A DNA stretch of 53,699 nucleotides, the filler included, from Jimgerdemannia flammicorona (Eukaryota), in NCBI GenBank assembly GCA_003990765.1. It is 3 parts of 3 records of this genome, joined end to end, with 100 filler letters (N's around TTAATTAATTAA, not from the genome) between each part and the next. Parts side by side here need not be neighbours in the genome. Positions count along the whole stretch, not along the records: positions 1 to 17,834 come from RBNJ01002389.1; 2 more parts are not named here. One strand, written 5' to 3'. The notes below the pieces were generated by a model. That model was not told the origin of the DNA, made no database searches, and worked only from the letters and a program-made list of their open reading frames with translations. Of the stretch, positions 77-41,938 are shown piece after piece. Position 1 is the stretch's first letter, and every line of letters starts with the position of its first letter. The position numbers and the translations under genes were made by a program.

Positions 77-1259
77 TTATAAGTAACTTATAGAGCCAGC
101 TTCTAAGTTTTAGACTAAGTATAATATTTAAAAAAAGTAAAAAAGAATTATTATAGAAGAAGATAATATTGATGTAATTTATGAATAATATCAACTTAAT
201 AACCTAAATATAATATCTATCTCATCATCTACTTTTAATTCTCTCCTCTTTTTAATTTACCAATATTTTTTATTATCTACAGGTTTAGAAATCTTAAGTT
301 AATTGTCATAATCTTCACTACATACTACAATAGTATCTCCCACTACTACTGTTTTCTATCATAGCTAAGAAATAGATACTGGGCACTATTCTGGAGAGAA
401 TTCAAATAATTGGAATTATGATGATGAGTCTGAGAGTTCAGATTCAATATATATAAGTAGTTATATATATATATATGAAATATATAAATTAAAATTAAAT
501 AAATATATATTTAGTAGCTAAAAATTATTATCAAAATATTTTCAGAGTTCTCAAATAACTTGGAGTAAGAAAGGAAAGAAGAATCATATATCAGAACAAT
601 TCTCAATTTCACTAGTATATGCAGATATAATAAAGATCCAATAGATGTCTTTGATCAATTATAAAGATTAAAAAATATTTAAATAATAAATATATTTTAT
701 CCCAAAACCAAGCAGATTAGAAAGCCAAAGAAGATTATATCAATATATAAGATTTTGAAAAGACATAATATATTAATAGAAGACTAGAACAGAGTAGTCA
801 AAAAAATCTATAACTTTATATTTCTTGAGAATGCATTCCTAAGTATTTCCAATCAGTATAAATTTACTGAACTATTTCTAGCCAATATACCACATTTTGA
901 TAATACTCAAGATTTATATTCTAAGATAAATATTCAAACTATATATATATGAAATATTTATTATAAATATAAAACTAATCCAAAAATATAAATATAAATT
1001 TATTTATTTATTTTTTTAAGTATGATTGAGAAATTTCTCAGACTCATAGAAAATTAAAAGAAAAGCTTCAGAACTGTCTCTCATTCAGCTTCTCAGATAT
1101 CAAAAACCTCTTATCAGGATACTTAAAAGATCAAACCAGAATGAAGAAGATCTGAATAGATCTTTTGAAGTCACTGTCAGAGGACATATTACTAAGTTTA
1201 TTTATCAAGTACCAGAGTATATACTTGATAATAATGAAGAGATTCAGCATAATGAAGAT

Positions 1260-1308
<49 letters not shown>

Positions 1309-2829
1309 ATTCAACCTCTTCATAATCTATACTACTCTGAATATATTATAAATGTTTTCAAGTATCTCTAGTATAATATATATTAAGTACAGTAGAAGAA
1401 TGTATCTGTTCAGGAGATAATGATTCTACAGCTTACATTTATTCTAACTTTGGTAAATATATCTCAAACTTTAATCTATAAAATGATATCTCTAGATATT
1501 CAAGCTCATCAGATCTTTATCTCTCCTTTTGTCAGTTAGAAAATCTTATATCACAGATTGACTCAAAGTTGAATGAAAAGACAGATGGAAAGAATTACAG
1601 AATATGAATTAAAAGGTTGGAAAAATATAGTCAGGTTAAATTGAAACTAGATTAACTTAAAAAAGAAGTATATACTGTATATACCACTGGAGATATGAAT
1701 GGTAAGAGATCTGATTCTGAATTAGTAAGTGATATTGAAGATATACTAAATACTTAGATGTGAAAAAGATATATAACTTTTGTATTTTTTAGTCAAAACA
1801 TTGGCAGCTTCTTTAATTTAATATTAGTATACTACTTCTTCTTTTATTATTATACAGTTTTGACTTTAATTCAATTATGACTTTGCTTTCAATAAGTATG
1901 CAGATTGAATTGTAGTATATGAATTGTATGATATAGATTGTGAGATGTAAATTATAGTATACATATTTTTCTCTTTGAAATATAGCATAGTATTAATTTC
2001 ATAGTATGAATATATATTCTGGTTCAAATTTATATATTACTTATACTGAATAAGATATAGATTTCTAGTGAACAGTATAGATAAGATGTAATTAGATTTC
2101 TAGTAAATAGTAATACAGATGATATTAAGCAAAATAGTATATTTTCAAATAATAGTCTTGGGTAAAGTCACTATCACTGAGCTCTCTGAAGATAATGACA
2201 AACTCAAGTAATCTTCTCCTCCCCTGCCTTCTCCCCCCCTCTCTCTCTCAGAACTGCCACTGCACTTTATAGTAACTTTGTAATAATGAATTGCCAGAAT
2301 TACTCTGTGAATATCTCTTAGAATTTTGGTTAGTGTCTTCATATCTTGGGAAATATTTTTGCAGTAGCTAGAAGCTACTTATATTATTGCTATTCTGTAC
2401 TTAATTATTATCATCAGACTCAATTCTCAATGACATAACTATATTTCTTTAGTAGATCTACTGATACTTGAAGGAGAATATTGTTATAATTCTGAGCAGT
2501 CAGTAGATGAAGTCTTTTTTTCTTTTTTAAGAAAGGAGAGCAAAGCACAAGTATAGAATGAGATAAAAAGATAAAAGAAAGGGAGAAGGAACTGAGTGGA
2601 CAGAATTAAATAGAGTTGTCAGACATCTTTTATGACCATGCTACTCTTATGCTCTTGCCTCTATATATACTCATATATTTATATATACTGTACTTAATTT
2701 CACTATCTCCCTCCCACTCTCCCTCTCTACTTATCTTATATACACAAGTAGATTCTCTCTCTAAATCCACATTAACAAGCCCCCATCTATACTACTGACC
2801 AAGCTTTTGACATAACTATCTTTAGTTAG

Positions 2830-3584
2830 TATTTTGATATTAGAGGTGATATATATAACCCACATATACTATAAAGATATTAGAGCAGTATACCTTACCA
2901 TTACTGCTTTCCTTGCCCTACCAGAGAACCTGCAGGAGAGTCCAATTATGAAGATACTATATATCTTTTTCATATTATTTATCAAGAATCCAGTATAGAT
3001 CTTTTGCAAAAATTGAGTAACAGATAGATAGGCCAACCCTTTCCCATTCAGAAATCTGCTAAGTTGTTTGTCACTGAGCAGTATGATATTCTGGTCAGGA
3101 TCTAGAGTTACTTCACTATTACTACAGAGTTTTGGCATGACACTGCCAGTGTAGTAAGTATTTAGAAGTAGCAAAATCTAATCTTTAATTACCTGTAGCT
3201 TATTATACAGCAAATCCTCATCAATGATGCAGGTAGTCAGTGGATCATCAGTCCTGCAATTGGAAGGGATCAGATATGTCTTAGAACTATAGTATATTTC
3301 ATATCTAGAAAAAAACACCACAATACTATACTACTCATTAAAGTTGAAGACCTAAGTCTTGAGAATATCTAGCTTCTCAACAATATGTTCACATCTTTAC
3401 CTACAAGAACCTTGACCTAATGTTCTGAGTAAGCACATAAAGATAGCTGTTTGGAGACCATGGCAAGTCAGTTAGTATCATTAATTATGCTTTTGTAATT
3501 CTTGGTAGATTGACCATTAATATCTGTGCCATATCATAAAACAAGTATCACATATATTTCAAAATCATACCCATTCATTACCAT
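2830..3584 (-). pseudogene. Decayed caspase/metacaspase-like (peptidase C14) gene
   Basis: Manual translation across stops and frameshifts: ..IINDTN*LAMVSKQLSLCAYSEH*VKVLVGKD / EHIVEKLDILK..IVVFFSRYE..TYLIPSN..*ILLLLNTYYTG..GLAYLS..YSIFIIGL. Transitions alone restore the catalytic motifs FSGHG (AGA TAT GAA from GGA CAY GGA) and LLDACHAG (AAT ACT TAC TAC ACT from GAT GCT TGC CAC GCT), with correct order and spacing. Confidence 0.75.
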
Positions 3585-3639
3585 ATTATCTACATCAATC
3601 AGACAGAAGATAAATGTGCTCAGAAACCAAAGTGAGAAT

Positions 3640-4362
3640 ATTTCTATTTATTATCTAGTCAGTAAATATCTCTGTAACTGAAGCCTTATGATCATTCTAT
3701 TTATTTTATTTATTATCTAGTTGGTAAATATCTCTGTGACTGAAACCTTATTTATTTCATTCTATTATCTAGTTAGTGAATGTCTCTATAACTAAAGTCT
3801 TATAAGCATTCTATTTATTTTATTTTATTTTATTATCTGGTTGGTAAATATCTCTATAACTGAAGTCTTATGACTATTCTATTTATTATATTATATTATA
3901 TTATCTAGTCAGCAAATGACTCTATGACTGAAGCCTTATAACTATTCTATTTATTTTATTTTATTATCTGGTTAATGAATGTCTCTGTAACTAAAGCCTT
4001 ATGATTATTCTATTTATTTTATTATATTATATTATCTGGTTGGCAAATGTCTCTATAATTAAAGCCTTATGACTATTCTATTTATTTCATTTATTATTTG
4101 ATCAGTAAACATCTCTGTGACTGAAGTCTTATTTATTTCATTTTATTATCTGATTGATGAATCTCTCTATAACTGAAGCCTTATAACCATTATATTTATT
4201 TTATTTTATTTTATTATCTGGTCAGTGAATATCTCTATGATATAAATATTCTATTTATTTTATTTTATTTTATTATCTATTCAATAAATATCTCTATAAT
4301 TGAGATCTTATGATTATTCTATTTATTTATTTTATTATCTGGTTAGTGAATATCTTTGTAAC
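3640..4362. repeat. Tandem minisatellite, about 12 units of 50-67 bp
   Basis: Recurrent unit like TTATTATCTGGTTGGTAAATATCTCTGTGACTGAAGCCTTATGACTATTCTATTT with a variable (TTTTA)n tract. Confidence 0.9.
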
Positions 4363-4399
4363 TCACTGAATAATGCTATCTCTCTCTCTAACACTGCTA

Positions 4400-5160
4400 T
4401 TATACTCTATATTAATAGGCTCCTATACTACTGACTGAAGACTTACTATTTTCTAACAATCTACTATATTCTGAAGATCTACTATATTAAAAACCTACTG
4501 TATTCTAATAACTCACTATATCTACCATATTCTGGCTTCCCAAAAATTACTATATTTCAGCTACTTAACTATCTCAGATGACTTACTGCATTCTGACTTT
4601 GTAACTCATCATATTTCTATTCTACTATATTTTAATGATCTACTACATTCCAATGACCTACCATATTCCAGCTTCTCATCTTCTGATGATCCACTATATT
4701 CCAACTTCTTCTTTCAATAACTTATCATATTCCAACTTCTCATCTTCTAATGACTTATTGTATTTCTGTCCTCCAATAACCCACTGTATTCTGACTTCCT
4801 ATCTTCCAATGATCTACTATATTCTGATAACTTACTATATTCTGATGACCCACTATATTCCAGCTTCCTGTCTTCTGATAACTTATGGTATTCTAACTTC
4901 TCATCTTTAGACAACTTACTACATATATTCTAGCTTCCTGTCATAACTCACTATATTCCAGTATCTAATAAGATATATTTATTAGTTTTATACTCTTTAA
5001 TCATCTTGCTATCTATCATCTTACTATCTATCATCTCACTATCTATCATTTTGCCATCTGTCATCTTGCTGTCTATAATCTTGCCATTTGTCATCTTACT
5101 GTCCATCATCTCACCATCTGTTATCTTACTATCTATTATCTTACTATCTGTCATCTTATA
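4400..5160. repeat. Degenerate tandem repeats (CTACTATATTCTGA-like), then a 15-bp array at about 5000-5160
   Basis: 15-bp period (TCTATCATCTTGCTA-like) produces the repetitive ORFs 4951..5154 and 5006..5347. Confidence 0.8.
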
Positions 5161-5399
5161 CTCTATTCTCTTACAATATCTTTGTCTTGCAGTCTATTAT
5201 TATTTTTTAGTTCATTATTATCATTTTGCAGTTTATTATTATCTTATAGGTGAAGTCATCATTGTTAATATCTTGTATTCTGCAGTCTTTATCCTACAGT
5301 CTATCATTAGCTACATTCTTGATAGCAATTATTTCATACAATTGTAATATCTAAAATTGTAAAATATACATTATAAAGCATCTGCATTTCATCTTAATA

Positions 5400-7433
5400 G
5401 AATTGTACAGAAACTAGAAGTATATCTGAGTATAATTTTGAAAACTTTAAGATAGTTCAAAAACCATAATAAAATATTTTTATACAGATCCAGATATTGA
5501 CTAGAATATATCAAAATATTTCTACTATATATTCAGATATTGGTCATAATGTGGTTAATTTATTTCTGATATTGATCTAGATATTTTAACAATAATTTAG
5601 ATATTTTTTCATCTATTCTAGAATAATATCTCCTAATAACTAAAATAGTATATCTATACTACTAAATTTGTTCTGGAATATCTCAGAACTGTAATTCTAG
5701 TTTTGTAATAATTCTATCTAAACTATGGACAATACCTATAAACTCTTATAGTCATCACTTAAACCATAATACCAGCTATATAAGAAATTATAGATATTAT
5801 ATAAGATAATATCTAATAAGTATAAGATATTCTCACAGAAGTACAAAGAATATAAATAGTATATATATATTGACAAAAATGAAAGGGAAGTTCCTTTTAA
5901 AATAGAAGAATAAGTATTACTCAGTACTCAGTACTCAGTATCTGACCCTAAGTAATATAGGTCCCAAAAAGAAGCTTAAATCTTACTATATCAGACTATT
6001 TAAGATTCTTAAAAAATATAGATCTATCATATATAAGTTGGATCTTCTGGTAATATTAAGAAGAATTTACCCAGTGTTTTATATATTTCAACTTCAGCTA
6101 TATATTTTAAATACTTTTAAAGAAAGAACTATATTATCTCTAGACTTAGTAATTATTGATTAGTAATCAGAATATGAAGTAGATCATATCTTGAATTATC
6201 AGAATTATCAATTTAGATGAGCTGCTAAGCTCATCTGATATTATCTTGTAAAATAGAAAGAATATTCTAAGTATAATACTATCTGGGAAAAAGAAGACAA
6301 TCTGTTACCAAATATAGAAGAAGTAGTAATCTGATACAGATATCTAGTATAATGGAAATTATGATAGAATTTCTGAAAGATAGTTATATCTCTAAATAAC
6401 TCTAGTAAAAAGAAGTATAAATATCCTGAAATAATTCTATATAGATAATCTACCTTCTCTTCTAATATAAGTATTCAGCAATAATACTAAGAATAAGTCA
6501 AGAATAAGATTATTATTATTATCTTTAGAGCAATTGAATGTCAATAGAATTTTGCTAAACCACTATCTATCAATATATAAATCTCTAGAGACTCTGATTC
6601 AAATAAAGCCTAATAATATCTTAAAAAGATCCAATACTTCCAGGCTTTTCACTACTAATAAAAACTTAAGGAGTACTATGAGATAGAATGCCTTATCTGT
6701 CAATAAGCTACTCTCAGTACTGCTAAACAACAAGTCTGCTAAAAGACTCTATGTTCTTTTCTGTATCTGACTCTAAGTTCTCAATTACCTCTATAGAGTA
6801 TTTTCTAAAAATATTGTCAATTTGAGTAATGAACAATAGAGTAAATTTTTTTTTTTCAAGTAGTTTAGTATACTATCTTTCAATTTGACAAATATCTAGA
6901 GTTTAGTACTGAGTCTAATAAGTAAGCTCAAGTAAAGAAGAGAAGAATATAATGAATTATTACATATACATATTTATAAGTCACCAAAAATTTCAATAAA
7001 AATTTCTATGAAAATTTCTATAGAATTTTCAACTAGTAGTTATAGTTACTCAAAGAAGTATAACTATATATAGACATATTCAGTACACTATATTTAGTTA
7101 TAGCCTTCAAATATATATAAATATCCTCTATATTGAGTGTATTGTAATCTTAGCTCTACTTTCTCTAAATATAAAAATAAAGTGGTATTCTTATTACAAG
7201 AACTCTCAAATCTGACTTATTAATAATTCTGAGTCTGATTAACTTAAAATATAAATGTGATATTGTCACCAGTATCAGAACTTGAAAGCAATACTTGAAC
7301 TCTACTGTAACATACATTTAGAACTCAGTACTTTCTCAAGAGTACAGAATTTAGAATCAATAATCACTATTGATTATCTACAATATATTAATTCTATTAG
7401 TATATAGTTTTATTATATTTAATATTCTTGACA
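5400..7433 (+). mobile_element. Gypsy element C, 3' remnant of a chromovirus: integrase C-terminus, chromodomain, accessory ORF, PPT and LTR
   Basis: GPY/F-like KLKSYYIRLFKIL..YKLDL..IYPVF at about 5970-6090; chromodomain EYEVDHILN..YLVK*KEY..TIWEKEDNL at about 6170-6305; purine tract at 6934-6947 followed by an LTR-like stretch (6948-7433) with TATA and AATAAA, ending TGACA. Confidence 0.75.
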
Positions 7434-8803: not shown

Positions 8804-9658
8804 TCATCCGCCGAGGGAGTGGCCATATTCGAAGTTCACGATGTGCGGGCACGATTTTCTCAGCTCAACGGCGATCTCCGTGACGCCACAAGGTGTTCCA
8901 ATGTAGCTGTACCGGAAACTCCTTAGCTCCGACCAGGAGGAGATAAGGGAGAAAAATTCACTTCCCTCGATGTACGCGAGGTCCAGCACGCGTAGCTGAG
9001 TACAGAGGCGCAGCGCGGAGGTCATGGGCCCGTCGAGACACATGTAGCGGAGGAAAAGCCTCCTTAGGGTGGCGGAGTGAGAGGAAACGAAGCTGGCGAC
9101 CGAGTGGAGGTTTTCGGAGCCAGAAATTTGTAGGGTGGTGATCGTCGGGAGTGTGAGCTTTTTGATGTGGTCGAAGAAGGCATCGATGTCCTTGTTGGAG
9201 GAACCCGACTTGCTACCCAGATGGATGATGAGTGTGGAGAGGCTAGGTGGGCATAGAGCCAGGATGGCCGCATAGTCTTCGAGTGCTCGATGGAATTGGG
9301 GTTTTGGTAACCAAGGGGCGGGGAGGTAAATCACCATGTTCTTTATCAAGGTGTGGTAGCGGAGTCCATATTTGTGAGCTTCCTTGAGCAGCTCAGCCAT
9401 TCGGCCGATGGTGCTCGCCGTCGCACCATTGTAGAACAGATGGGAGAAGTTGAATTTGTTGAGCCACTGGTGGGCCTCGTCATTCCAAGTTGTGCAGACC
9501 AAGGAGATAGCAAACAGGTCGAGGAATAAATCGTATTTTTTGAGGGTGGTTTTCACCGCGACATAGCAGATCACCTCGCGTACTAATTCCGGCGGCAAAC
9601 GGGAATATTTGCGGGTGAGAGGGAGAGGTTGTTTGGTTTCGCAGGGGGTGGAAGACAT
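8804..9658 (-). CDS. F-box / RNI-like LRR protein, apparently intronless, about 284 aa
   Basis: N-terminal F-box-like RLPPELVREVICYV..ISLVCTTW; LRR-like LRRLFLRY, CTQLRVLDL, SELRSF, SCPHI; GC- and CpG-rich. ATG at 9658 (the ORF track starts at an upstream TTG). The 3' end could continue via a frameshift or intron. Confidence 0.85.
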   Translation of the reverse strand: MSSTPCETKQPLPLTRKYSRLPPELVREVICYVAVKTTLKKYDLFLDLFAISLVCTTWNDEAHQWLNKFNFSHLFYNGATASTIGRMAELLKEAHKYGLRYHTLIKNMVIYLPAPWLPKPQFHRALEDYAAILALCPPSLSTLIIHLGSKSGSSNKDIDAFFDHIKKLTLPTITTLQISGSENLHSVASFVSSHSATLRRLFLRYMCLDGPMTSALRLCTQLRVLDLAYIEGSEFFSLISSWSELRSFRYSYIGTPCGVTEIAVELRKSCPHIVNFEYGHSLGG

Positions 9659-10329
9659 TATCAAAAGACGAGAAGAGAGAAATTATTGTTGCCGTCATTT
9701 TGACATTTTGGGCCGTGACTGCGCCGCACTGGAGTCGCATTTTGATTTCTATGTGGCTGCATCCCGCCACAGGAATATAAGCTGTTTTACTTCGATTATT
9801 TGAATCGCATGAGCTCGTACTTAGAGCCTCTTTATGTTAAACACCACATCCCGACTGAGCCTCCGTTGTTACACAGACTTTTCCAAGGCGCAAGATAGAC
9901 TTCTCTCAATCTCAACTAAATAATTCGTATTGTCAATTTTCATCCCTTTCCACATAATAATATACTGTGGAAAGTAGTTGTAAGCTCATTAATAAAAGTC
10001 AAGCATCAACTGGCAGCGGCCGATCGACACTGGCATTGCTTGTTTTGGATTTTGTGTCATCAACGCAGTAACGCGCAATCTGTGAAGTTCCGCCAGAAAT
10101 TTGTCACTAATTAATAAAGGGTCAAGTAATTACTTAGTAAATTAAGTAAAGCGTCGCAAGGTAACTTGTCAAACTCCCAAAGTGAGAGCCTGCTTCTTTA
10201 TCTGAATGTACGGAATGTCGAAATCTGGTGCTTTGTATTCTCCAGTCTTCGAATCTGCCAGTCTGCCTTTATTAAGCATCTTTGACAAACATCTCTATTT
10301 ATTTTTATTTTTGATGACCTGACGTGCGA

Positions 10330-12060: not shown

Positions 12061-12179
12061 TTGTTTGAAAGTTTACAACTAATATTATAACAAGTATAAT
12101 ATTATTAATATTAAATATATTTCTATCAAACTATTATATTTTAAGACTTTAGTTCAAATAATAGGTATAATAAACTATA

Positions 12180-12505
12180 TATATACTAATAGAATTAATA
12201 TATTATAGATAATCAAGATGACTATCAGTCCTAAGTACTGAGTTCTTATAAGGAAGTACTAAGTTCCAATTGCCTATTATAATAGTATAGTCTAAGTATT
12301 ACTTTTGAGTTCTTGTACTGACAGAGATACCATACTTATATCTTAAGTTAATTAAGCTCAGAATCATTAACAAGTCAAATCTGAGAGTTCTTAATAAGAA
12401 TATTACTTTATTCTTATATTGGAAGAAGCAGAGCTGAGATTATAATATACTCAGTATAGATAGATTCAAAGCTATAACTAAATATAGTATATTGGATATA
12501 TCTAT
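12180..12505 (-). mobile_element. Inverted LTR fragment of the element C family (another short copy at about 8070-8145)
   Basis: Reverse complement aligns by eye to about 7070-7405; 8075-8132 is a direct match to about 12186-12243. Confidence 0.75.
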
Positions 12506-12509
12506 ATAT

Positions 12510-15500
12510 TATAATATAGTAGATGCTTAACCTTGAAAGTATGTTGAATTTTTGTATCTTAAAAACTTGATCTTCTTTGACTCTGCAGAGTTCTCAGATA
12601 TAGGAGTGGGTGAGTTTGAAGTATATCTGCCCACAGGCTTACTAGTTCCTTTGCTTTCTCTTTGCTTTGAACTATTTCAATCTGAGATTTATTCACTCTA
12701 AGATACTGGGTTATTTATATAAGTTTGCTAGCTATAAGGTAGCTAAGTTATACTATGAGTCACTTTTTGTAAGTACTGAATCTTTCAACATCTGCAAAGT
12801 GTTCAACATTCACAAAAACTTTAACAGTTGCAAAATAACAATGACTACTATTTATACGGCTATACTATATTGAGAATTGAATTCAGATACCATAATCAAA
12901 TGTCTAATTTCTCTAATTTATATTTCTAATTCAGATCAACCATCACAACTTCCTCCTGAATAGATAATTCATCTCTGAAATATCCTATTCAAACTCCCAA
13001 GCTTCTATGATTTGTATCTCCTTATACTGTTCAATCTGCATCATTACATACTCTCAGTATTATCTCTTAATATATCCAAAGTCTCCTGAAACTACTCTGT
13101 AAAGATGGGTTAAAGCTGGCTCATCATTCTTAAATATCTTATTGACTCATTTAACAGTTGTAATCTGAGTATAAGAGAGCTGACACTCTCTAATCCAGTC
13201 TTCTTTTTCCATGTCTGGCTGAAAGTTCAGTAGCTGTCCCAACTTGAAGTATTCTTGAAACTCAGTTTGGTTCTAGTAGGCCTTGAAGTGTGAGATTCAT
13301 GACAGATGTGTCTGGACTATACTCTGTATACTGTCAAAGGATTCTTTCATAATCAGTGGCTCAGTAGTACACCATTGTCTTTCTATGGCTCACTATATAG
13401 TACTGATGATCTTGAGAGCTATAACAGTACTCTGTTGATTAGTTATGATACTTCTTGAGTCAGTTTCTGTAGATGGTAGTGAGGATAATTGTGCCTGAGA
13501 GTTTTTATAGCCAAAAGGTAGTCTCTTTTATATCTTGTACAAGGTAAGATCCTTCCCACTTAGCTTCCAGTTTTTGTGACCATGAAGCTTCTACTATATT
13601 CTGATATACTAGAACTTTGTCTCCTATCTTAATAATCTCCAGAGACTTGTGAACCTTTTCTACATTATTCTATTGTAGTGTCTGTACTTTGGTTATATAA
13701 TCTTCAGCCTTCTTCCTGATTTGGTATAGTCTCTATATCTCTCTATCTATATATTTCCATATAGTATCTCTATTGGATGATAGAGTTTCTTGAGAACCTT
13801 CTTTCCCAAACAGTATTTCCCAAGGGGTGAAATGAGTGCTTTGTGATTGAATATCCTGGAGAGTAGATAATGCTAATGGCAGATAGTGGTCCCAGTTTTT
13901 GTAGTTATCACAGATCTTGGTAATAACATTTTTGAGGGTCTTGTTGGTTCTTTCTGCTTATTCATTTCCTTGGAGATGGTATACTGTGATCTGAATGTGC
14001 TGGATCTTGTACTTCTTGTAGAGAACCTCAAAGAACTGGTTCATGAATTCTGTTCCTCTATCTGTAGTTACTTGTATTGGGGTCTTGAACTAGCAGATGA
14101 TTTCTTTGTAAAAGAAATTAGTAATTGACTATACATTGACTTCCTTGAGAGGTCCTGCCTCTATCCATTTTGTGAAAAAGTCTATGATGACAATGATATA
14201 TCAGTTACTAGTCAAAGTCAAAGGTAGAGAACTGATCACATCTATTGCAATATGTGCAAATAGTACTAGTTCTATATATACTAATCTTAGGGCTTGATTT
14301 TATTGATTTCATTGATCTTGTTTCTATTTCTGACATTTATCACAGGTCTTGACAAATTGTCTGATATCTTCCTTCATTCCTGGTTACCATATTGTTCTTC
14401 TTGCTTTATCATATATATTTGTTTCTTCTAGATAGCCAAGTTCATATACTGATTTCATTGCCTACTCCTTCTTGTATTCTGATATGACTAGTAGCTTTTC
14501 TTTTTTCAATGTTTTTCCATTGGTTTCAAATTGTTTCCATGTTCTGTTGATAATCATTTATATCTATTCTTCCAGATATTGGAGCATCCTTTCACTGTCT
14601 CAGATAGGTGATTATTCTATAGTAGAGCTCCTTATTTATGATTGATTTACTGGTTGGAGGTCCTTCAGAGTATCTGTGAGAGAGCATCTGTATTGGCATT
14701 GGTTCTTTCTGGGCAGTATACAATAGTTATATCATATGCTTGCAACTTTATGATCTATTTAGCATAGATTTCTTTAGATTGCCCAGTGATCAGTAGTCAA
14801 GTGAGGGCTGAGTAGTCTGTCTAGATGGTGAAGTATTATCTAGCAAGATAGTATTGGAACTTTTCCACAGCCCAGATGACTGCAAGGCATTCCAACTTAT
14901 AGAATTCATATTCTTTTTCAGCTCCTTGAGTTCCTCAGCTTAGGTATGTGATAATATATTCTACTTTGTCTTTCTTTTGAGCTAGGACTGCTCCTAGTCT
15001 CTGGACACTTATATCTGTCTACAGGATGAATTCTTGAGTCCAATTGGGTCTTCTAAAGATAGGTGCCTGGGTCAGTCTGATCTTGAGCTCATTAAATGCT
15101 TTTTATTGCCTGCCAGTCCATTGAAACTTAGTATTCTTCTTGTTGAGTTCATAGATTGGGTCTGCAATATTGAAGAATTCTCTAATAAATTATCAGTAAT
15201 ATGAGGCCAGCCCCATGAAGGCTTAGGCTTTAGTAATAGTAGTAGACCTCAGATATAATACTACTGCTTATATCTTGAGAGGGTCTGTGTATATTCTATC
15301 TTAATTGATGACATAGCCAAGATAGATGATCTCAATTTCTGCAAACTTACACTTCTTGGGCTTGATGTAAAGACCATACTATTTTAGCTTCTCCATCATC
15401 TATTGGATATGCTGTAGATATTCTTCAGCTGTCCTGCTATAGATAATAATATCATCTATATAAACCATCATCCATCTTTCTATATCATAGTGGAAGATTT

Positions 15501-17320
15501 TATTTATCATTTACTAGAAGCTTGCAGGGGCATTGCATATTCCAAATAGTATTCACAAGTAGATATAAGTTCTATCTGGGGTGATGAAGGCTGATTTCTC
15601 ACTTACTGTTTCTGTGAGTCTGATTTGGTGGAATTCTGAATATAGATCCAAGATATTATAGTACTGTGCTTTATCTCCCAGAGTTATAAGAATGTCATTG
15701 ATGAGGGGCAGTGGTTGGCAATCCTTCTTGGGGACTATATTGAGCTTTCTGTAATCAATGCAGAGTCTTGGAGTAAATTCTCTAAGCTTGCTTCCTTTCT
15801 TCAGAGCTAGTACAACTAGTGAAAACCAGGGGCTACTAGTCTTCTTGATAATATTAGCTTCTTCCATCTGCTTGATTTCTTCTCTGAGCCACTCTCAGTA
15901 GACTGGTAGGACAGATCTTACCTTCTGGTAAATTGGTTCAGTATCACCAGTATCTACATTATGATAGTAATATAGAGTCTTTCTCTTGATATCCTTGAAG
16001 TCTATGGTAAGAATATCCTCAAATTCATACAGTATTTTCTTGAGCTCTGTCTTGAGTAGAAATTCATTTCCAATAGTATAGTTATGCTTGTTCATAGTTT
16101 CCTTCTTCTTATACTCCAACTCAGTAATCTTAGTACTGGTGAATACTCCTCTTTCTGTTGATCCCAATTCTTTCCTTCCTCTTTCCATTTTCTCCAACTT
16201 CTTGACTTCTATGATTCTTAGCTGAAGAACTGGAAAGATCAATATTTGTGCTATTCAGTCTTTCTTCTTAATTAGAAATGGAATCATAGAGTTGTGGTTT
16301 CTGATAATAAGTAGTATTTCTCCAATATAATCTAAATCGATGACTTCTCCTTCAATTGTGATTTTGCTCCTAGCCAGACTGCTTCTTGTCTTGAGGATTC
16401 TGACATGGTCTTTTGGAATAGTTATCTCTAGACTAGTTGTAAGTAGGGTGGTTGTCTGGAGTTCTAGTATGGTTTTTTCCACTATGGTGATACATATCTA
16501 TTCTAGCTGCATTTTCTGACTTATATTCTGATAAGACTGTATCAGAGTGAATCTTCTGAATCTTGATCTTGATTTTCTCTTCATCATTACTGTCTTCAAG
16601 GAGAGCTAGTAGTTCATCATTCTCTTCCTCCTCTTCTTCTATTTTTTTTTCTTCTCTTGCCTGTTTCTCAAGTATCTTCTCTCTTCTTTAGTGGTAGATC
16701 TTCTTGATTTTGCTGATACACTGGTAACACTCATTGACATGCTCTATATAGTACATTTAGATCCCATGGGGGCAGACTTCTTGTGGTATATATTCTCCTA
16801 TAATCTTCTTATATCAGTCTTCTTCACTCATCTATCTGATTTTCTTCTTCTTTTTCTGGATTGTCACCATATAGGCTTCCTCCCATTCACTCTCTTCTTC
16901 CTCTATCTCAGGCAGGACTTCTTTGTTGACATTGATGGGAATTCATATCTTCTGTCCATAGTAAATGATCTATATCTTTTAGACATTTAGATCAATTATT
17001 ATCTTGGCTTTATGAAGCTACTAGTTGCTGATGAAGATGTCATAGTTGGTTGTATTAGTCATGATTACATCTACTGGGATGGTTGCTCCTCCAAACTTGA
17101 TGGGAACATCTTGGATCTTTCTCAGAGATATGGCTCTTGTACTATCTGCTGTAACAAATACTAATTTGGTTGCTTCTTCAACTTTCCAATCTAGGTAATC
17201 AGCTGCTTTCTTGCTGAGAAGGCATCCTCCTGCTTCTGTATCAATGATAGCCTCAAAGACTCTATCTTCAATTTGATAAGTTGCATAGGCAGTATTTGGT
17301 GGTGTTGAGAGTGTATATAT
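12510..17320 (-). mobile_element. Gypsy element A, 5'-truncated: PR, Zn-like linker, dUTPase, RT, RNase H, IN, accessory ORF, PPT, 3' LTR (12510-12947)
   Basis: Protease AIIDTEAGGCLLS at about 17250; RT PRLCIDYRKLN, LDLYSEFHQI and VYIDDI (about 15450-15870); RNase H and integrase motifs at 13500-15050; PPT AGGAGGAAG at 12949-12957, then LTR starting TGTGATGG, homologous to the solo LTR at 38502. Confidence 0.9.
16150..16575 (-). pseudogene. dUTPase domain of Gypsy A, between protease and RT
   Basis: All five trimeric dUTPase motifs in decayed form: AARIDMY, TRSSLA, GEVIDLDYIGEI, D*IAQ, ERGRKELGST. Confidence 0.9.
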
Positions 17321-17834: not shown

Positions 17835-17934
17835 NNNNNNNNNNNNNNNNNNNNNNNNNNNNNNNNNNNNNNNNNNNNTTAATTAATTAANNNNNNNNNN
17901 NNNNNNNNNNNNNNNNNNNNNNNNNNNNNNNNNN
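17835..17934. other. Assembly gap with TTAATTAATTAA spacer
   Basis: N-runs flank a 12-bp spacer; the same structure occurs at 35769-35868. Confidence 0.95.
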
Positions 17935-18242
17935 ACCGGCCTCGCAAGAGTATCCCAACTGACCTGGGACCTCCTCCCCGCCCAAATCCAATCCCTAGCC
18001 ACCTTTACGAGCTTCTTCACCACCCATGCTGGGAAGTCCAGATGATACGCCACATACCACAGCTTAGGGAACCAATATACATTCAGGATCGACACCCGCC
18101 CCGCTAAAGAGATATGTCGGCCTCCCCAACCTCGAAGGGCCTCCCCCCAGCTATGTATCTTGTTCTCCCACCACACCCTTGGCAAGACAGAACCATAGAC
18201 AGAGAGGAATATGCCCAGATATCACACCACCTCACCAGTAGG
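17935..18242 (-). mobile_element. L1/Tx1-like LINE ORF2 fragment, CpG-intact copy
   Basis: WGEALRGWGGRHISLAGRVSILNVYWFPKLWY is homologous to WGEALQSWGGHYLSLVGHISILNVYWLPKL at about 52345-52436. Confidence 0.9.
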
Positions 18243-19938
18243 GACAATTTTAGACACTATCTCTTAGGAAAGAGATTTGCTCTTATTACTGATTACTAAG
18301 CTTTATAATAGTTGTTCAATAAACTGAAATCCTCAGAAATCTTTACCAGATAGATTATGTCTCTGCAAGAATACTAGTTCACTATTATCTATAAGAAAGC
18401 TATCAAGAATTATAATATTGATACTCTGTCAAGAATCTCATAAACTTAATAAAAAGAGAAAGAGCACTCATAAGAGAAGACTGCTTCCTACTTACCCAAA
18501 TGAATCAAGAACTACACCTCACCCTCATCTGGAGTCTGCACTACAGAAGCTTTAAAAAGGGAATTCAGTTAGCTCACAAGCTATTTATTTAAAGAAATTT
18601 TAAGAATTTTCAAGAAGGCAATAGTGAACTTTGGAGACTAATATACCTGAGTCCTACAAGAAGATAAAATATAGAAAATACTTACAAATAATCATAATCA
18701 GAATATATATCAAGAAATTGGAGCTACTATTATAAGAATCAAGAAGAGATACTAGTGGCCAAAAATGAGAAAAAAAATTTCAATATATATTTAACAATGT
18801 GATATCTACTAAAGTTACCAATAAAAACCAACTAATAAAGTACTATTAATATCAATTACAGTGCCAGCTGGAGCCTTTCAAAGACTAGGAATAGATATTA
18901 TTAGTTCTCTATCAATAACTAGCCAAAGAAGATACTATATCCTCACCATTGAAGATCATCTGATGAAATGGCTAAAAGACTTTGCTATTGAGACTACTAA
19001 TGCTCAGACAATCATTAGGATCTTATATGATGAAATTTTCAGCCACCATAGTATTTCCAAGAAAATCATCACAGACTAAGGCCAAGAATTTGTCAACAAA
19101 GCCATAAAGACCTTTGTAGCCAACTTTAAGATCAAACTATATCCAACAACAGCCTATTACCTACAGGCAAATGGACTTACTGAATAAATGAACCAGACCA
19201 TCAAGTGAGGTCTCAGCAAGACCAGAGATCAATTTAATTGAGATATATATCTACCTACCAGTAATCCTATTCAGTATCTGCACTTCAAAAGCAACTACTA
19301 CTCAATAGACCCCTTTCTATTTGATATATGGCTAAGAAACACAATATCCCACTGAACCAATCCAGCTAGATTTGGTAAAATGAATCACTGAAGAGATTAT
19401 CTAGTTATATGTAATATATGTACTAATAAGTATAAGGTTTTATTACTAAAGTATAAGAGTAACAAAAGAAGTACTATAACTATAAAGCAGACCTTAAACC
19501 CCTGCTTATTAAATAATAAATCTAGATATTTCACACTATTATAGAGGAGAACTAGAGTGCCAAACTCAAACTGAAATAGAAAGACCCTATCTCATCTATC
19601 AAAAGTTTATAAACCATACTTATCAACTTAAGACCCTGAATGAAGTTATACTCAAGACTAAGATATACTGTAACTATATAAGATCTTATTACACAGTAGA
19701 AGCAAAACATATTTGAATAACTCTGTTCACTTTATCTGTATTATCTTTATTAAAGAATGATGGATACTTCATATAGAACTCAAGAAAGTCAATAATGCTA
19801 AAACTAATCTCAAGGCTAAATATTACTACTAGAAATTATCTTAGATTATAAAAAAAATCCATTCTGAGAGATTCTAACCCCTAGCTATGACAATGAGAGC
19901 CCTTACTCTAGATAAGGATTGTTAGTATATCAACAATT

Positions 19939-19983
<45 letters not shown>

Positions 19984-21223
19984 AAGACCTATTATTCTCA
20001 TATACATAATTACCATAACTAAGAACAACTCTAATTTTATAAGAAGCAGATGTGATAACACCTCTAAAACTAGTGATATCAGAATTCAGAAGACTGTCTT
20101 GACTTTACAAGCTACTAATTATAAATTGTAACTCAACTTTAACTTATCTTGATCATAAGATGATTTGTAACTAAACTCATAATGACTCATAATGAGCCTA
20201 GTAATACTACTACTAGTCAGATGACTCTACTCTCTAGACTAAAGAAGATAACCTTCAAGCTATAAAAGAAGTATCAAGAGAAGAAGTACAAAGCATCAAT
20301 CATAAATAGAAGACTTATTACAAAATAAAATACCTACTATTTGCTAATCTACTAGAACAAGGAGCCACTCAGATCTATTAATTCAAGAACAGATGTTCAC
20401 TGATATCAAGAGGGCAATGAGACTATATATAAGAAAGACCCCTAGTCTGAACCTCTATATAAGAAACTTCTACTACTAAACTCTCAACTACTGAGAAATG
20501 GAGACAAGAATTACCACTGCTGCTGAATATCTTTGAATGTGGTAAGAATATAAGCTGAGACATCACCTCTACCAAGAGTTCATATAAGCTAGCTCTTAAG
20601 AAATTATAGATACTATATATATAGACAGATATGAATAGAAATAGACCAAAAGAGTCTACCAGATCTTCAGGCATGTACTCTGGGCCATTCTCAATCTAGA
20701 ATATATCAAAGTCTCTGATATCTAAGAATTGAAAAGCTACTGTACAGATCACGCTAAGGAAATGATTGCAGAAGAAGTCCAGTCTACTATCATAGTTAAG
20801 AGTGATGAGGTTTAAGATCTTTGAAACTCTATCCTAGAGGACAATCTAAACCAATTCATTTATGATCTGATTGTGCTATTTCAAGACACTCCCTTGAGAG
20901 TCAGATATCTTCAGAATTCTACAGATATTTCTTACTTTATAGATGACCTCACTATTGACTGGAGATCTTAAGAGCAGAATGACCTTATACTCTTTGATAA
21001 TATCACCCCCTCAGACAACTTGGAGAATGATGGCAACCCATTTATTTTATTGGAAGATGACATCAATATCTTCCTTTCTTTATTCCCAGACTCTCTTACT
21101 GACTTCAGCATAACTATAGAAGATGTAAAAAATGATTTGACCAGACTCTCTAAAGAAAATAAAGAGAAGGATGAGGATGATATAATCTCAGTCATATTAA
21201 ATTTTAAGATGTATGAGGATGGC
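18243..21223 (+). mobile_element. Gypsy element D: RNase H end, integrase and long 3' accessory region
   Basis: FRHYLLGKRFALITDY at about 18250; integrase FQRLGIDIIS..EDHLMKW..IITD*GQEF..QANGLTE at about 18875-19190; interrupted at 21224 by element B. Confidence 0.85.
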
Positions 21224-22752
21224 TGTAACAATTTCACAGTCATATTTAGTCTTAGTACATTTTCACATCTTTTAGTTAGTCTTTTCTTGTCATTTCTTAA
21301 ACATTCTACTATGTTCTGCTATCTTCTACTTGCTTAGAAACCTTGTCTCAGTACTTAGACACTACTAGAACATTCCTGTCTTTCCTTGGTACCAAGTATC
21401 TTGTCTTAGCTAGTTATGGAACCTTTTGGAACATTGTAGAATAGTATTAGTCAGCTTTTCCAAGAACCTATTTCTTGGCATTTCTCTTTCTTTCTAAGAT
21501 TCTTCTAGATCTTTCTTTCAGATTATAAATATTCTTGTTCTCTGTCTGAATAAAGCTCAGAATATTTTTCTACTAGAAATCCTTAGAGAATACTTGAATC
21601 TTTAAATATCTCTTTGAGCTACTTTAGACCAACTAGAATTTCTAGATTTAGCTGCTTTTCCTTAAAGAAACTAGAACTATTATACTTGATAACAGTGGTA
21701 TTATTACACCTTACCTTATTAAGAAACCTCACACAAATTTGGAAACCAGTCACAAATAGTCATATGAACCTGAAATGAGCTATGAAGAGTCAGTCTATTA
21801 GTCAGACCTCTCTGCTATAGAAGAAGTAGAAGAATTGCAGCTCAATATAGAGGATATGATCAATACTATGGTCCACCAAATCCAAGAACTTCAAGAACAA
21901 CTAGAATAGCAGAAAACAAAAACTGTGAGTATATCACATTCTACCATAGTACTAGTCAGTTTTAAGTCACTCAAACCAGATACCTTCAATAGCCATTGAG
22001 GAGAACTATCTACAGATGTATAGACCTTCTAGTTAGACTAATACTTTGAGCTTACAAGAATGGAAGAAGACATGTAAGTCTAATTTACTGCCACACTTCT
22101 CTGAGGAAATACAGCTATCAGGTATTACAATCATATTATAGTTATATCTATATACTTATATGTACAAATCAGAGACTGAGAAGCTTTCAAGAGAGTACTT
22201 CATAAGTAGTTCAAGCCTGCTAATGCAACCAAGCTAGCTAGAGATAAGCTAGTGAACATCAAGCAACTCAAGTCTGTGCAAAGCTATAATATAAAATTCT
22301 TATCAATTCTACTCAAGCTACCAGTGATATCTGAGGATGAAAAGATAGACTGCTATATCTGAGGTCTGAAGGGAAACACATGAGCCAAGATCAAGCTAGA
22401 AGAGCCCAAAAACCTTAATGAAGTCATGAGAATTACCAATAGATGATTTGATGTCATCACCTTTGATAACTGCTTCAAACTAGAATACCACAAGAAGAAC
22501 TACTTTGAGAACCACCATAAGAACCAACCAAGGATAGTTGGCCTGGCACTAATGGACTTAGATACTATAAATAAAAAGAACACCAAGCTCACCCCTGAAG
22601 AAAAGAACTGCCTGAAAAAATCTAGAGTCTGTTTCTTCTGTCACCAAATAGGACACATTGCAACCAAATGTCCTAAGAAAACTAGCAAACCCTTAATATC
22701 AGTCACCATGTTGTCCAAGGACACATCTGTTAACCCCACTACCAGTCAATCC

Positions 22753-26862: not shown

Positions 26863-28031
26863 GTTGCCTCTTTCTCCACTATCTTACTGATCACAATGGT
26901 TTGATAGGCAATCTTCCAAGTCCACTTTCAATAATTATTACCCCCCCTACCTCAGGTTGGTTTGCTGTACCTATTACAGAGCAGTGAGAGAGAGGCAATA
27001 GTGATAAGTTGCCTCTTTATCAGTATCTAATCAGTATCTTCTCTACTTTTTCATAGTTTCTGGTGCCTTTAGCTGCATCTGGAGTGCATCTGTTTTGGTG
27101 TAGCACTTTCTTCCTTTTGTTATCACCAACAAGATGCTATCTCAATGTATTATAGGTTATGTTAGGAGTTGACTGACCTTGGGTATCAAGTGCCCAGTAT
27201 AGGTTACCTACAGGTCCTTGGTGACTGTGGTTGGGCCCTCTGGCTTTGGCAAGCTTCTTGGTGAGCATGGTTCTGGCATAAGTGACTGTTTTTCAGGTAA
27301 TGTTAGGATGGGAGGGGAGATAGCCATTACAGATAGGAGAAAGGACAATTATGGTGAACCAGTAGAGTGTCAAGCTGGGGGAGGTCATCAGGGCTGAGGT
27401 AGGTGCTGCTTTGGTGGGGCCTTTTGATTAGTACAGAGTAGTTAGAGGGTAGATATCACTCTTGGCTTCTTTTGGTAATTTGGTGGATTGGGCTCCAGTT
27501 GTTGAGTGAGGTTGCAGGGCCTGAGGCTATCTATTTCAGGCATCTTGGCTACACTCAACTGGAACCAGGAGCTGATATAGCAATGTGATTGAGGCCTACA
27601 GACTTAAGTGGTGGTATATTGGGGTCTCCTCCTACCTCATATATAAGTTCTTTACTTATCTTAACTGAGAGAACTAGGCCCTATCTACAGTGATATACTT
27701 TGATGATGGTTTTTCTTTATCTATCATTCTCTTTAGAGTGGTAGGGGCTATTCTATTCAGCTTGGGCATAGTCTTGTACATATATTGGAGTCTCAGATAT
27801 ACACTTTTGGTCATTGGTATATAGCTGGGTTCTCCCTGGTAATAGGAAGAGCATGGTATATAGAATGAGGTATAGGCCACCATAGGCCCTGCTATGTCTA
27901 GTATGGTCAAGCTGCTAGACAATAGCTAGTCTAGGTTAATGGGGGAGCAGTGCTTGATGAGTGGTGAGAGAGAGTTTTGGCCTATATAGTCTAGGTTCTT
28001 TTCTAATAAAAATCTATAGAACTTTGAGTCC

Positions 28032-28062
<31 letters not shown>
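26863..28062 (+). mobile_element. 5'-truncated poly(A)-tailed retroelement (second LINE-like family) inserted in the 3' LTR of B
   Basis: A-tail at 28035-28064; about 18-bp TSD AATAATTTTACAGTTACA / AACAATTTTACAGTCATA; second copy at about 32780-33623. Confidence 0.8.
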
Positions 28063-28065
<3 letters not shown>

Positions 28066-33623: not shown

Positions 33624-33624
33624 T

Positions 33625-33633
33625 TTTTCTTTA

Positions 33634-33689
<56 letters not shown>

Positions 33690-35768: not shown

Positions 35769-35868
35769 NNNNNNNNNNNNNNNNNNNNNNNNNNNNNNNN
35801 NNNNNNNNNNNNTTAATTAATTAANNNNNNNNNNNNNNNNNNNNNNNNNNNNNNNNNNNNNNNNNNNN
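35769..35868. other. Assembly gap with TTAATTAATTAA spacer
   Basis: N-runs plus spacer. Confidence 0.95.
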
Positions 35869-36049
35869 AAAAAATACTAATAAATATAAAGTTAAAAAAA
35901 AAATTTAAATTTATACTTTTATTAATAAATATAAGATCAAAAAATAAAATAAATAAATATATAGTTAAAAATTTAAAAAAATTTGCAGGCAAATTTATCT
36001 ACAAAAATATATAATCTATTAGTTAATAATATAATATTTTCTCTTTAAT

Positions 36050-41898: not shown

Positions 41899-41938
<40 letters not shown>

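Follow-up and report, generated by a model that had tools for sequence, protein, structure and literature searches.

In complex retroviruses, the region from env or pol to the 3′ LTR holds regulatory genes, such as Tas/Bel1 in foamy viruses and Tax/Rex in deltaretroviruses. These genes sit at the 3′ end, immediately ahead of the polypurine tract and LTR, and are expressed from subgenomic RNA as small, soluble regulators. LTR retrotransposons can also carry extra genes, which mark a route from simple elements to complex retroviruses, and most of those described are env-like or recognizable enzymes. In bdelloid rotifers, a third ORF (ORF3) lies 3′ of pol in unrelated LTR-retrotransposon lineages of one genome, together with a dUTPase, an arrangement that resembles the one reported here (PMC5408684, in its passages on these elements). 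For fungal LTR elements, we found no description of the protein considered here in the literature on additional ORFs; in the pertinent passages of PMC3248453, extra domains are mentioned only in complex nested elements.

We analyzed a stretch of 53,699 nucleotides of Jimgerdemannia flammicorona (assembly GCA_003990765.1; "the window"), composed of parts of three records joined with filler. An earlier sequence-only reading of the window had claimed that an accessory ORF between integrase and 3′ LTR is shared by three different Gypsy elements, A, C and D. We put the probability at about three in four that the stretch in A is a decayed but genuine Ty3/Gypsy accessory gene, here called ORF X, that C carries a decayed homologue of it, and that the copy claimed in D is unsupported. 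The scope of this finding is modest, as the class of additional ORFs is already known.

ORF X in element A and its relatives

Element A is non-chromoviral and encodes a dUTPase. Its preserved features, all on the minus strand, are as follows.

12600 to 12947 (−): 3′ LTR of element A; starts with TGTGATGG at 12947, and the end near 12600 is approximate
12949 to 12957 (−): polypurine tract AGGAGGAAG of element A; L001, a near-intact relative, has the identical tract in this place at its two junctions
12989 to 13446 (−): ORF X of element A, a decayed 153-codon accessory gene, supported by its relatives and by codon comparison with L001
13406 to 17293 (−): gag-pol remnant of element A with dUTPase, RT, RNase H and integrase (Pfam on X-masked frames)

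Read in the sense of pol, ORF X (13446 to 12989) is followed on the same strand by the polypurine tract (12957 to 12949), while the 5′ part of the gag-pol remnant and the 5′ LTR are absent. A further copy of the LTR lies at 38713 to 38996 (83% identity). The minus-strand translation quoted in the sequence-only reading, said to run up to the polypurine tract, is present in one frame and ends about 30 nt short of the tract. In A the start codon of ORF X reads ATA, there are seven in-frame stops, and the terminal TGA is retained. Over this stretch (151 codons), the ORF X frame has 7 stops compared to 12 and 13 in the other two frames.

The layout of the gene is apparent from L001, a metagenome element that encodes, in order, a CCHC gag, protease, dUTPase, RT, RNase H and integrase and then ORF X, with no chromodomain by Pfam. 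ORF X of L001 runs from an ATG at 5795 to a TGA ending at 6256; about 40 nt of spacer separate it from the polypurine tract AGGAGGAAG, which is followed by the LTR. The start of the contig repeats this junction of ORF X end, polypurine tract and LTR, so that two junctions are available. L001 aligns with A at 71.5% identity over 4.4 kb (blastn), and the pol remnant of A is 54 to 74% identical to pol pieces of L001 (tblastn). Pieces of the LTR also correspond (blastn; 12894 to 13017 of A with 8 to 128 of L001, and 12656 to 12740 with 307 to 388), and a codon-by-codon comparison of ORF X gave 101 identical positions out of 154. The ORF X ATG (context ACCATGG) falls within the last pol codons, in the +1 frame. 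Because the pol stop of L001 (5836 to 5838) aligns with a CAG in A, the true end of pol is uncertain, and the overlap between pol and ORF X is either 44 or about 110 nt. Together with the relatives described below, this layout bears out, in element A, the claim of an uncharacterized accessory gene between integrase and 3′ LTR.

Selection was measured on one sequence pair, L001 and A, with dS near saturation (∼1.5) and stop codons skipped (8 of 116). On this basis, ORF X (108 codons) had a dN/dS of 0.11, compared to 0.15 in integrase and 0.13 in pol, and wrong-frame controls on the same DNA gave 0.68 and 2.12. Transversions by codon position numbered 11, 4 and 23 in ORF X (chi-square P = 7e-4) and 7, 4 and 22 in the integrase part of pol. 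On this pair, ORF X evolved as a coding sequence, with purifying selection that matches the strength seen in pol. A dN/dS comparison across families had been suggested in the sequence-only reading; the purifying signal found covers the single pair. All seven stops in A sit at L001 codons for Q, R or W (CAA, CGG, AGA or TGG), and among pol changes between L001 and A, C>T plus G>A amount to 507 versus 164 for T>C plus A>G. C-to-T and G-to-A changes destroyed ORF X of A at a later stage by turning glutamine, arginine and tryptophan codons into stops.

A HMMER search of 1.84 billion protein representatives returned three matches, all in the same frame (P0003, E = 1.5e-44; P0004, 1.4e-41; P0005, 1.3e-10). 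A wider profile and word-index search extended these to 13 relatives of 49 to 153 amino acids, all from ENA or JGI metagenome contigs; two carry the JGI label "hypothetical protein" and the others no name. The contigs are short, their genes were called by a prokaryotic-style gene finder, and the 13 proteins may be copies of few elements. They fall into three sequence subgroups, 66 to 85% identical to one another, and the three relatives that reach the C terminus share the ending ...EAWEFE. A metagenome scan with a six-row ORF X alignment yielded one locus from 596 pattern matches, and a scan of viral contigs yielded 48 pattern matches and no relatives. The integrase of A, searched against longer proteins only, gave two distant plant matches and nothing useful for the tail. 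A likeness to expanded families of Glomeromycotina, raised in the sequence-only reading, was not supported, as the relatives are metagenome proteins only (three by HMMER, 13 in the wider search). The library of representatives carries no names, so that some of its entries may be fungal without being labeled as such.

The predicted product is an all-helical protein of 153 amino acids (∼18 kDa). No membrane segment was detected (maximum 19-residue Kyte-Doolittle mean of 0.19) and no env family was matched in Pfam, in agreement with the view that it is not env-like. It also matches no described domain, as had been proposed. No Pfam family exceeded its threshold, the best lead being HTH_Tnp_Mu_2 (14.8 bits against a cutoff of 20.5, in 2 of the 13 members and away from residues 81 to 113), and a search of the PDB by sequence gave a single chance-level row (an asparaginase, E = 0.1). 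None of the 13 proteins matched Chromo in Pfam at E values up to 10. Structure prediction and a Foldseek search, both suggested in the sequence-only reading, were run: AlphaFold2 on 13 sequences gave a poor model (pLDDT = 52.6), for which Foldseek against the PDB returned no match at E values up to 0.001 (best E = 0.78). With the same low-confidence model, a wide VIA-align search placed 0 of 48,161 chains at Z ≥ 5; the best chain reached Z = 4.4, and MarR-type rows lay at Z = 3.5 to 3.9 and rmsd of 5 to 8 Å. Residues 81 to 113 are modeled, at this confidence, as a helix, a short turn and a long helix, which makes any helix-turn-helix assignment weak. The ESM Atlas returned unnamed clusters and scattered named ones at 0.92 to 0.93.

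The tails of elements C and D

Elements C and D are both on the plus strand, and their relevant features are as follows.

5960 to 6322 (+): end of pol of element C, with an integrase SH3-like domain at 5960 to 6103 and a chromodomain at 6173 to 6322 (Pfam)
6506 to 6718 (+): ORF X-like block 1 of C, profile positions 12 to 80 (hmmsearch)
6726 to 6821 (+): ORF X-like block 2 of C, profile positions 94 to 125, AKRLYVLF...LNYLYRV (transition-aware score)
7040 to 7430 (+): LTR-type repeat 3′ of element C, 75% identical to 12157 to 12509 on the opposite strand
18243 to 19675 (+): RNase H and integrase remnant of element D (Pfam RT_RNaseH, Integrase_H2C2 and rve; tblastn; end near 19675 placed by eye)
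20627 to 20731 (+): stretch of D claimed as ORF X-like, unsupported as a homologue (profile and shuffles)

The likeness among the three tails was noticed through a motif. A six-frame translation of the window contains three sites that fit [AVT]K[R/*][VL]xx[IL]F, at 13155 (−), 6738 (+) and 20645 (+), each followed after 14 residues by [LI]xxLxx[VI]; the pattern was fitted post hoc to these three sites, and the count carries no weight. Comparing the tails directly gave no significant result. The tail of A searched against the window with blastn and tblastx had no match at C or D, and Smith-Waterman alignment of 120-residue translations against 500 shuffles gave z scores of 2.1 for A-C (25 of 500 shuffles reaching the score), −0.06 for A-D (248 of 500) and 0.84 for C-D (111 of 500). 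Significance emerges only with the profile built from the intact relatives found elsewhere, against which A scores 204 bits. The claim of an ORF shared by three Gypsy elements is therefore best divided: the motif matches exist, the copy in A is real, that in C is real but weak, and that in D is indistinguishable from chance.

Pol of element C ends with an SH3-like domain (SH3_Tf2-1, E = 1.7e-5) and a chromodomain that scores under threshold (Chromo, E = 0.068), with the pattern Y-x-V-[DE]-x-I-L ... Y-L-V-K-W visible. Among A, C and D, the chromodomain is confined to C, as had been stated (in D, Pfam found none at E values up to 1), but the neighboring element B also has one at E = 4.7e-5. The C-terminal part of the L001 integrase matches D and B, and not C, at E values below 0.1 (tblastn). 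As stated in the sequence-only reading, A and C have different LTRs; the C-side LTR gave no match to the LTR of A at 12600 to 12947. Downstream of SH3_Tf2-1 and Chromo, two ORF X-like blocks follow in the expected order. Block 1 lies about 60 codons downstream of the chromodomain and in its frame, with an i-E of 2.6e-4 when hmmsearch was run on the six-frame translation of the whole window. Against short tail sequences it scores 17.3 bits, a value reached by 0 of 1000 dinucleotide shuffles (best shuffle, 8.6). Block 2, in a different frame from block 1, has a transition-aware ungapped score of 19/32, tied second among 107,206 window positions and reached by 10 of 1000 composition-matched shuffles (P ≈ 0.01). 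Within the motif RAIERQW, element C has cysteine for R and a stop for W, as expected from transitions. Only one copy of the C stretch is available; it is very decayed (24.7% G+C) and shows no start codon; an ATG-to-ATA start, considered as a candidate, was rejected as the codon is ATT.

C is a chromovirus and carries, at 6506 to 6821, a weakly supported ORF X homologue that is much more decayed than the copy in A. Because C has an LTR unrelated to that of A and a homologue between chromodomain and LTR, ORF X occurs in at least two Gypsy lineages, one non-chromoviral with a dUTPase (A) and one with SH3_Tf2-1 and a chromodomain (C), in keeping with the claim that it is carried by several. Alternatively, the C stretch may be a piece of some other element that came to lie behind the chromodomain.

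The stretch in D is, on the evidence of its sequence, not a demonstrable copy of ORF X. Its i-E over the window is 5.3 (hmmsearch). Against short tail sequences its score is 2.3 bits, which 25 of 1000 shuffles attain, and its transition-aware score of 14/32 is reached by 1000 of 1000 shuffles. Among 387 candidates, no relatives of 20300 to 21226 were found, nor does this region have a Pfam match. The sequence-only reading had placed it at the same position as in A and C, but a 42-nt poly(A) run (19940 to 19981) separates the motif from the D integrase. The LTR at 21227, in turn, belongs to the following element, B, as its 5′ LTR, given that leader sequence continues past the LTR in two copies.

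How far these likenesses reach beyond A can be judged from both ends. It is unlikely that the gene is confined to A and that C, like D, resembles it by mere coincidence in decayed, AT-rich spacer, with nothing shared between Gypsy lineages. The nonsignificant pairwise tests would fit this view, as would the P value of block 2 on its own and the lack of a visible start codon in C, and transition-aware scoring is permissive at the G+C content of C: an unrelated site at 32366 (−), dismissed as AT-rich low-complexity sequence, also scores 19/32. However, chance does not readily account for block 1, whose score no shuffle approached, or for a second block in the right order at the expected place, with several mismatches that are expected transition products. 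At the other extreme, D too could carry a diverged ORF X homologue at 20525 to 20735. A weak profile match stands at the flagged site (profile region 81 to 127), and beyond it (20730 to 21226) the frame resembles coding sequence, having 1 stop in about 165 codons. Yet the site was picked for its likeness, so that its P value of 0.025 is not independent, and the score of 14/32 lies below the mean shuffle maximum of 15.9. The open frame also extends about 140 codons beyond the expected end of ORF X, which, alongside the missing relatives and the intervening poly(A) run, makes homology in D improbable.

Expression, origin and possible role

The position of ORF X raises the question of whether it is a gene in its own right. 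Ty1 and Ty3 use +1 frameshifting, and ORF X lies in the +1 frame and overlaps the end of pol, so that it could extend Pol at the C terminus, through a +1 frameshift or a fusion, and stand in for the chromodomain of chromoviruses. The frame shared by block 1 of C and the chromodomain about 60 codons upstream would agree with this. We consider it doubtful, given that all nine relatives (of 13) that cover the N terminus, and L001 as well, begin at the same methionine in a strong initiation context, that the ORF X frame of L001 is closed 13 codons 5′ of the ATG, and that HMMER, run at all lengths on the 1.84 billion representatives, found no long polyprotein carrying the ORF X domain. Moreover, C has both a chromodomain and an ORF X-like stretch, so one does not replace the other. 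Even less probable is that ORF X is a passenger, a transduced piece of a host gene with no role in the life cycle of the element. Gene capture by LTR retrotransposons is known, but transduced ORFs occur in one or few copies only, according to the relevant passages of PMC7264820. ORF X, on the other hand, is open in 13 proteins of three subgroups and in L001 (a count from short metagenome contigs), is kept in all three subgroups at 66 to 85% identity and is under purifying selection equal to that of pol, and no host-gene relative was found among the 1.84 billion representatives.

Under our preferred reading, in which ORF X is a genuine accessory gene of A with a decayed homologue in C, the protein is probably made separately from Pol, either through re-initiation or from a subgenomic RNA that is spliced or started internally. 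That two lineages have ORF X could reflect exchange of a module between coresident elements rather than common descent, a choice on which we are evenly divided. As for function, where the sequence-only reading had raised a possible regulator or anti-silencing factor, we tentatively suggest that ORF X might act in trans as a regulator that binds nucleic acids or chromatin and affects, for instance, transcription from the LTR, the handling of RNA or the targeting of integration. This suggestion draws only on its position, where complex retroviruses keep regulatory genes, and on the modeled helices of residues 81 to 113. We further speculate, as a long shot, that ORF X arose inside retrotransposons, perhaps where the end of pol and the 3′ untranslated spacer were overprinted, and moved as a module between unrelated Ty3/Gypsy lineages, one chromoviral and the other not. 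It would encode a new helical nucleic-acid-binding factor that transactivates the LTR or blunts a repeat-directed host defense. That defense would then be the process that later destroyed the copies in the window.

Comparison with known systems

Compared to the regulators of foamy viruses and deltaretroviruses, ORF X offers a positional analogy only, and no similarity of sequence or fold was found. Fungal Gypsy elements have been reported with an extra ORF, to which no function was assigned, and with a dUTPase that is placed as in A and L001. The text of that report gives neither sequence nor position for the extra ORF, which may be ORF X or a different gene. The rotifer ORF3s are a GDSL lipase, a DEDDy exonuclease and a fusion glycoprotein, i.e., enzymes or env-like proteins (PMC5408684, in its passages on these ORFs), whereas ORF X matches no family. 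In our case, the sharing between lineages is seen in a single intact family plus one decayed copy. Like the described sense aORFs of LTR retrotransposons, ORF X occupies the same place in the same orientation and is found in most copies of its family. Unlike those aORFs, for the most part env-like, ORF X is short, soluble and without a membrane segment, and no sequence relation to them was found. The family is missing from Pfam and from named proteomes, so that copies go unnamed or are annotated only as "hypothetical protein." As a small orphan for which we found no cellular relative, ORF X would be a compact case in which to ask what a third gene gives a retrotransposon and how such modules spread. 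It adds one more member, with a previously undescribed protein, to the additional ORFs already known from LTR retrotransposons.

Gypsy remnants and their surroundings

The window is full of decayed repeats, with a G+C content per kilobase of 20 to 50%, and holds four Ty3/Gypsy remnants (A to D) with mappable 3' parts.

Ty3/Gypsy remnants with mappable 3' parts
Element A, pol remnant: 17293 down to 13406, minus strand; dUTPase, RT, RNase H, integrase
Element C, only the end preserved: plus strand; integrase SH3-like domain 5960-6103, chromodomain 6173-6322
Element D: 18243 to about 19675, plus strand; RNase H and integrase, no chromodomain
Element B: plus strand; LTRs 21227-21682 and 28063-28497; chromodomain

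Satellite-like tandem arrays lie at 3619-4363 (periods of about 68 and 114 bp), 4971-5192 (15 bp), 36040-37230 (about 290 bp) and 39491-42560 (about 250 bp), the first two taking the place of C's upstream portion. Long poly(A)/poly(T) runs occur at 1-75, 1262-1309, 19940-19981, 28035-28067, 33634-33686 and 41910-41937; that at 28035-28067 adjoins the LTR start at 28063, the place expected of a polypurine tract. A relatively G+C-rich direct repeat of 860 bp (26866-27722 and 32781-33636; 73% identity), interleaved with the LTR pair of B, represents either the paired LTRs of another nested element or a tail region common to two elements. Four masked runs of 44 N each form two pairs (17835-17934 and 35769-35868), both bordered by the same sequence at 97% identity (repeat family D5). 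Below the first pair, a minus-strand translation resembles by eye the C-terminal part of a non-LTR reverse transcriptase, for which Pfam gave no report. Unlike the remaining window, 48001-53000 combines 44-50% G+C with a strongly positive GC skew (0.39-0.54), and pieces of it are similar to 17953-18249 and 35191-35404. Amid the dead elements, an intact ORF of 292 codons (8804-9682, minus strand; 38-49% G+C) has unnamed or F-box-like clusters as its closest Atlas clusters, F-box-like proteins making up 76% of the members of one of them.

An accessory gene in element A

A sequence-only reading had proposed that A, C and D share an accessory ORF between integrase and 3' LTR, here called ORF X. 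Our analysis finds this gene to be real for A (decayed copy at 12989-13446, minus strand); C probably has it too, and the claim for D lacks support. The translation quoted for A was recovered in one minus-strand frame between the integrase end and the polypurine tract at 12957-12949. When the translated tail of A (the stretch between integrase end and LTR), with X at stops, was scored against 1.84 billion representative proteins, three matches in the same frame were obtained (1.5e-44, 1.4e-41 and 1.3e-10), and a profile search yielded 13 proteins of 49-153 aa, every one from ENA or JGI metagenome contigs. Two bear the JGI name 'hypothetical protein' and the others none. All nine relatives that cover the N-terminus share the same starting Met, and the three reaching the C-terminus share an identical acidic end (...EAWEFE), giving a full length of 153 residues.

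The gene's setting is preserved in L001, a metagenome contig of 6479 bp that is a near-intact relative of element A (71.5% identity over 4.4 kb). L001 codes for CCHC gag, protease, dUTPase, RT, RNase H and integrase, lacks a chromodomain, and then carries ORF X from an ATG at 5795 (ACCATGG context) to a TGA ending at 6256. About 40 nt beyond its end lies AGGAGGAAG, followed by the LTR, and this junction of ORF X end, polypurine tract and LTR occurs a second time, in the contig's initial 80 bases. At the contig's other end, 6400-6479 is an 18-bp tandem repeat within the LTR, and 1-80 holds the tail end of a further ORF X copy with its polypurine tract; the arrangement reflects either tandem elements with a common LTR or assembly wrap-around. 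The dUTPase lies between protease and RT in both A (16155-16476, minus strand; Pfam E 1.9e-15) and L001 (residues 648-775 of the 774-4616 frame; Pfam E 2.7e-28), a placement also reported for some basidiomycete Gypsy elements (PMC2864245).

Transversions between L001 and A in the pol-free part of ORF X number 11, 4 and 23 at the first, second and third codon position (chi-square p 7e-4), a pattern like that of the integrase part of pol (7, 4 and 22). The dN/dS ratio likewise sets the ORF X frame apart from the wrong frames in this single pair.

dN/dS between L001 and A (one sequence pair, dS near saturation, stop-bearing codons skipped)
ORF X (108 codons): 0.11
Integrase part of pol: 0.15
Rest of pol: 0.13
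ORF X DNA, wrong frame 1: 0.68
ORF X DNA, wrong frame 2: 2.12

In A, the start codon has been lost (it reads ATA) and the frame holds seven in-frame stops, each at a site where the L001 codon specifies Q, R or W. This is consistent with the strongly one-way transition bias of A: in pol, C>T and G>A changes number 507, and those in the opposite direction 164. Together, the transversion pattern, dN/dS and stops at Q/R/W sites indicate that ORF X was a working gene, later mutated to death with the rest of element A. The proportion of cytosines changed in A shows a mild context preference (CpG 0.46, CpA 0.32, CpC 0.26, CpT 0.22), unlike classical RIP, in which CpA dominates. L001 has a G+C content of 45.9%; the values are lower in A (35.8%), D (30.7%) and C (24.7%).

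Candidate copies in elements C and D

Across all six frames of the window, the central motif from which the shared ORF had been deduced does occur three times and no more, at the named sites and with equal spacing to the next motif, but this count is without weight because the pattern had been fitted to those very sites. Direct comparison of the A tail (blastn, tblastx) gave no match at C or D, and local alignments of the tail translations fell within the range of shuffles, whose scores reached the observed one in 25 of 500 (A-C), 248 of 500 (A-D) and 111 of 500 cases (C-D).

With the profile of intact proteins, a search of the six-frame window gave a single additional hit, 6506-6718 (i-E 2.6e-4), in the frame of the C chromodomain and about 60 codons downstream of it. 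The score of the C tail, 17.3 bits, was reached by none of 1000 composition-matched dinucleotide shuffles (best shuffle 8.6), and mismatches in the block include expected transition products. The motif block of the sequence-only reading lies directly downstream in a different frame. Under an ungapped, transition-aware score, which asks for each codon whether reversing T-from-C or A-from-G changes could yield a family residue, this block scores 19 of 32, tied second of 107,206 window positions behind A (28), and 10 of 1000 shuffles reach that value. The other site scoring 19, at 32366 (minus strand), was dismissed as AT-rich low-complexity sequence; the measure is thus permissive in such DNA. 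Element C very probably carries a decayed ORF X homologue, as judged from these sequence scores. C and A belong to different lineages: in C there are an SH3_Tf2-1 domain and a chromodomain, the latter absent from L001; the C-terminal part of the L001 integrase matches D and B, not C; and the LTR-type repeat after C (7040-7430), a copy of which lies beside A at 12157-12509, is unrelated to the A LTR.

The stretch in D (20627-20731) has a profile i-E of 5.3 over the window. Its tail score was reached by 25 of 1000 shuffles, at a site that had been chosen for its likeness, and its transition-aware score (14 of 32) is below the mean shuffle maximum of 15.9. The assumed location fails as well: a 42-nt poly(A) run (19940-19981) separates it from the D integrase, and the LTR that begins at 21227 belongs to B, as its 5' LTR, because the leader continues after it in two copies. 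The frame is also nearly open for about 140 codons past the expected ORF X end, and 20300-21226 has no relatives and no Pfam families. Given these observations, the D stretch is unproven as a copy and is probably a chance match. A coding-like plus-strand frame, with a single stop in about 165 codons, runs through 20730-21226 up to the insertion point of the B 5' LTR.

The protein, its possible role and known systems

The ORF X protein (153 aa, 18 kDa, pI 6.8, ten histidines) has no hydrophobic segment and is therefore not env-like, in agreement with the sequence-only reading. Nothing was above threshold in Pfam across the 13 members, and nothing was recognised among PDB sequences, in the ESM Atlas, by Foldseek (best E 0.78) or by VIA-align wide (best Z 4.4 among 48,161 chains). 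The sole Pfam lead, HTH_Tnp_Mu_2, came from two of the 13 members and stayed below threshold (best E 0.031). AlphaFold2 gave a poor model (pLDDT 52.6) made up entirely of helices. Its best-scoring region, residues 61-100 (pLDDT 65-75), takes in a short helix linked by a turn of three residues to a long one (81-113), an arrangement that would suit a helix-turn-helix, as a lead and not a finding.

In L001, ORF X is read in the +1 frame with respect to pol, and the two frames overlap, that of pol stopping at 5836-5838 in this copy. A fusion to Pol is nonetheless unlikely: the conserved Met in a strong initiation context and a same-frame stop 13 codons upstream argue for a product separate from Pol, whose source might be an RNA that is spliced or started internally, or else re-initiation of translation after pol. 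Complex retroviruses have regulatory genes in this position. We tentatively propose, with a probability of roughly 0.3, that the ORF X product could serve the element as a regulator that binds nucleic acid or chromatin.

No description of this protein was found in the literature searched; the structure table of PMC2864245 may bear on an earlier sighting. Extra ORFs placed between pol and the 3' LTR form a recognised class in plants (PMC7264820), and fungal Gypsy elements have been drawn with an 'add. ORF with unknown function' and a dUTPase between PR and RT (PMC2864245, Figure 3 legend and nearby text). ORF X thus adds a new protein family to a kind of feature already known. That it occurs in a non-chromovirus and, very probably, in a chromovirus, with different frame relations to pol, suggests that it may have moved as a module between Gypsy lineages, an exchange comparable to that reported for the ORF3s of bdelloid rotifers (PMC5408684).
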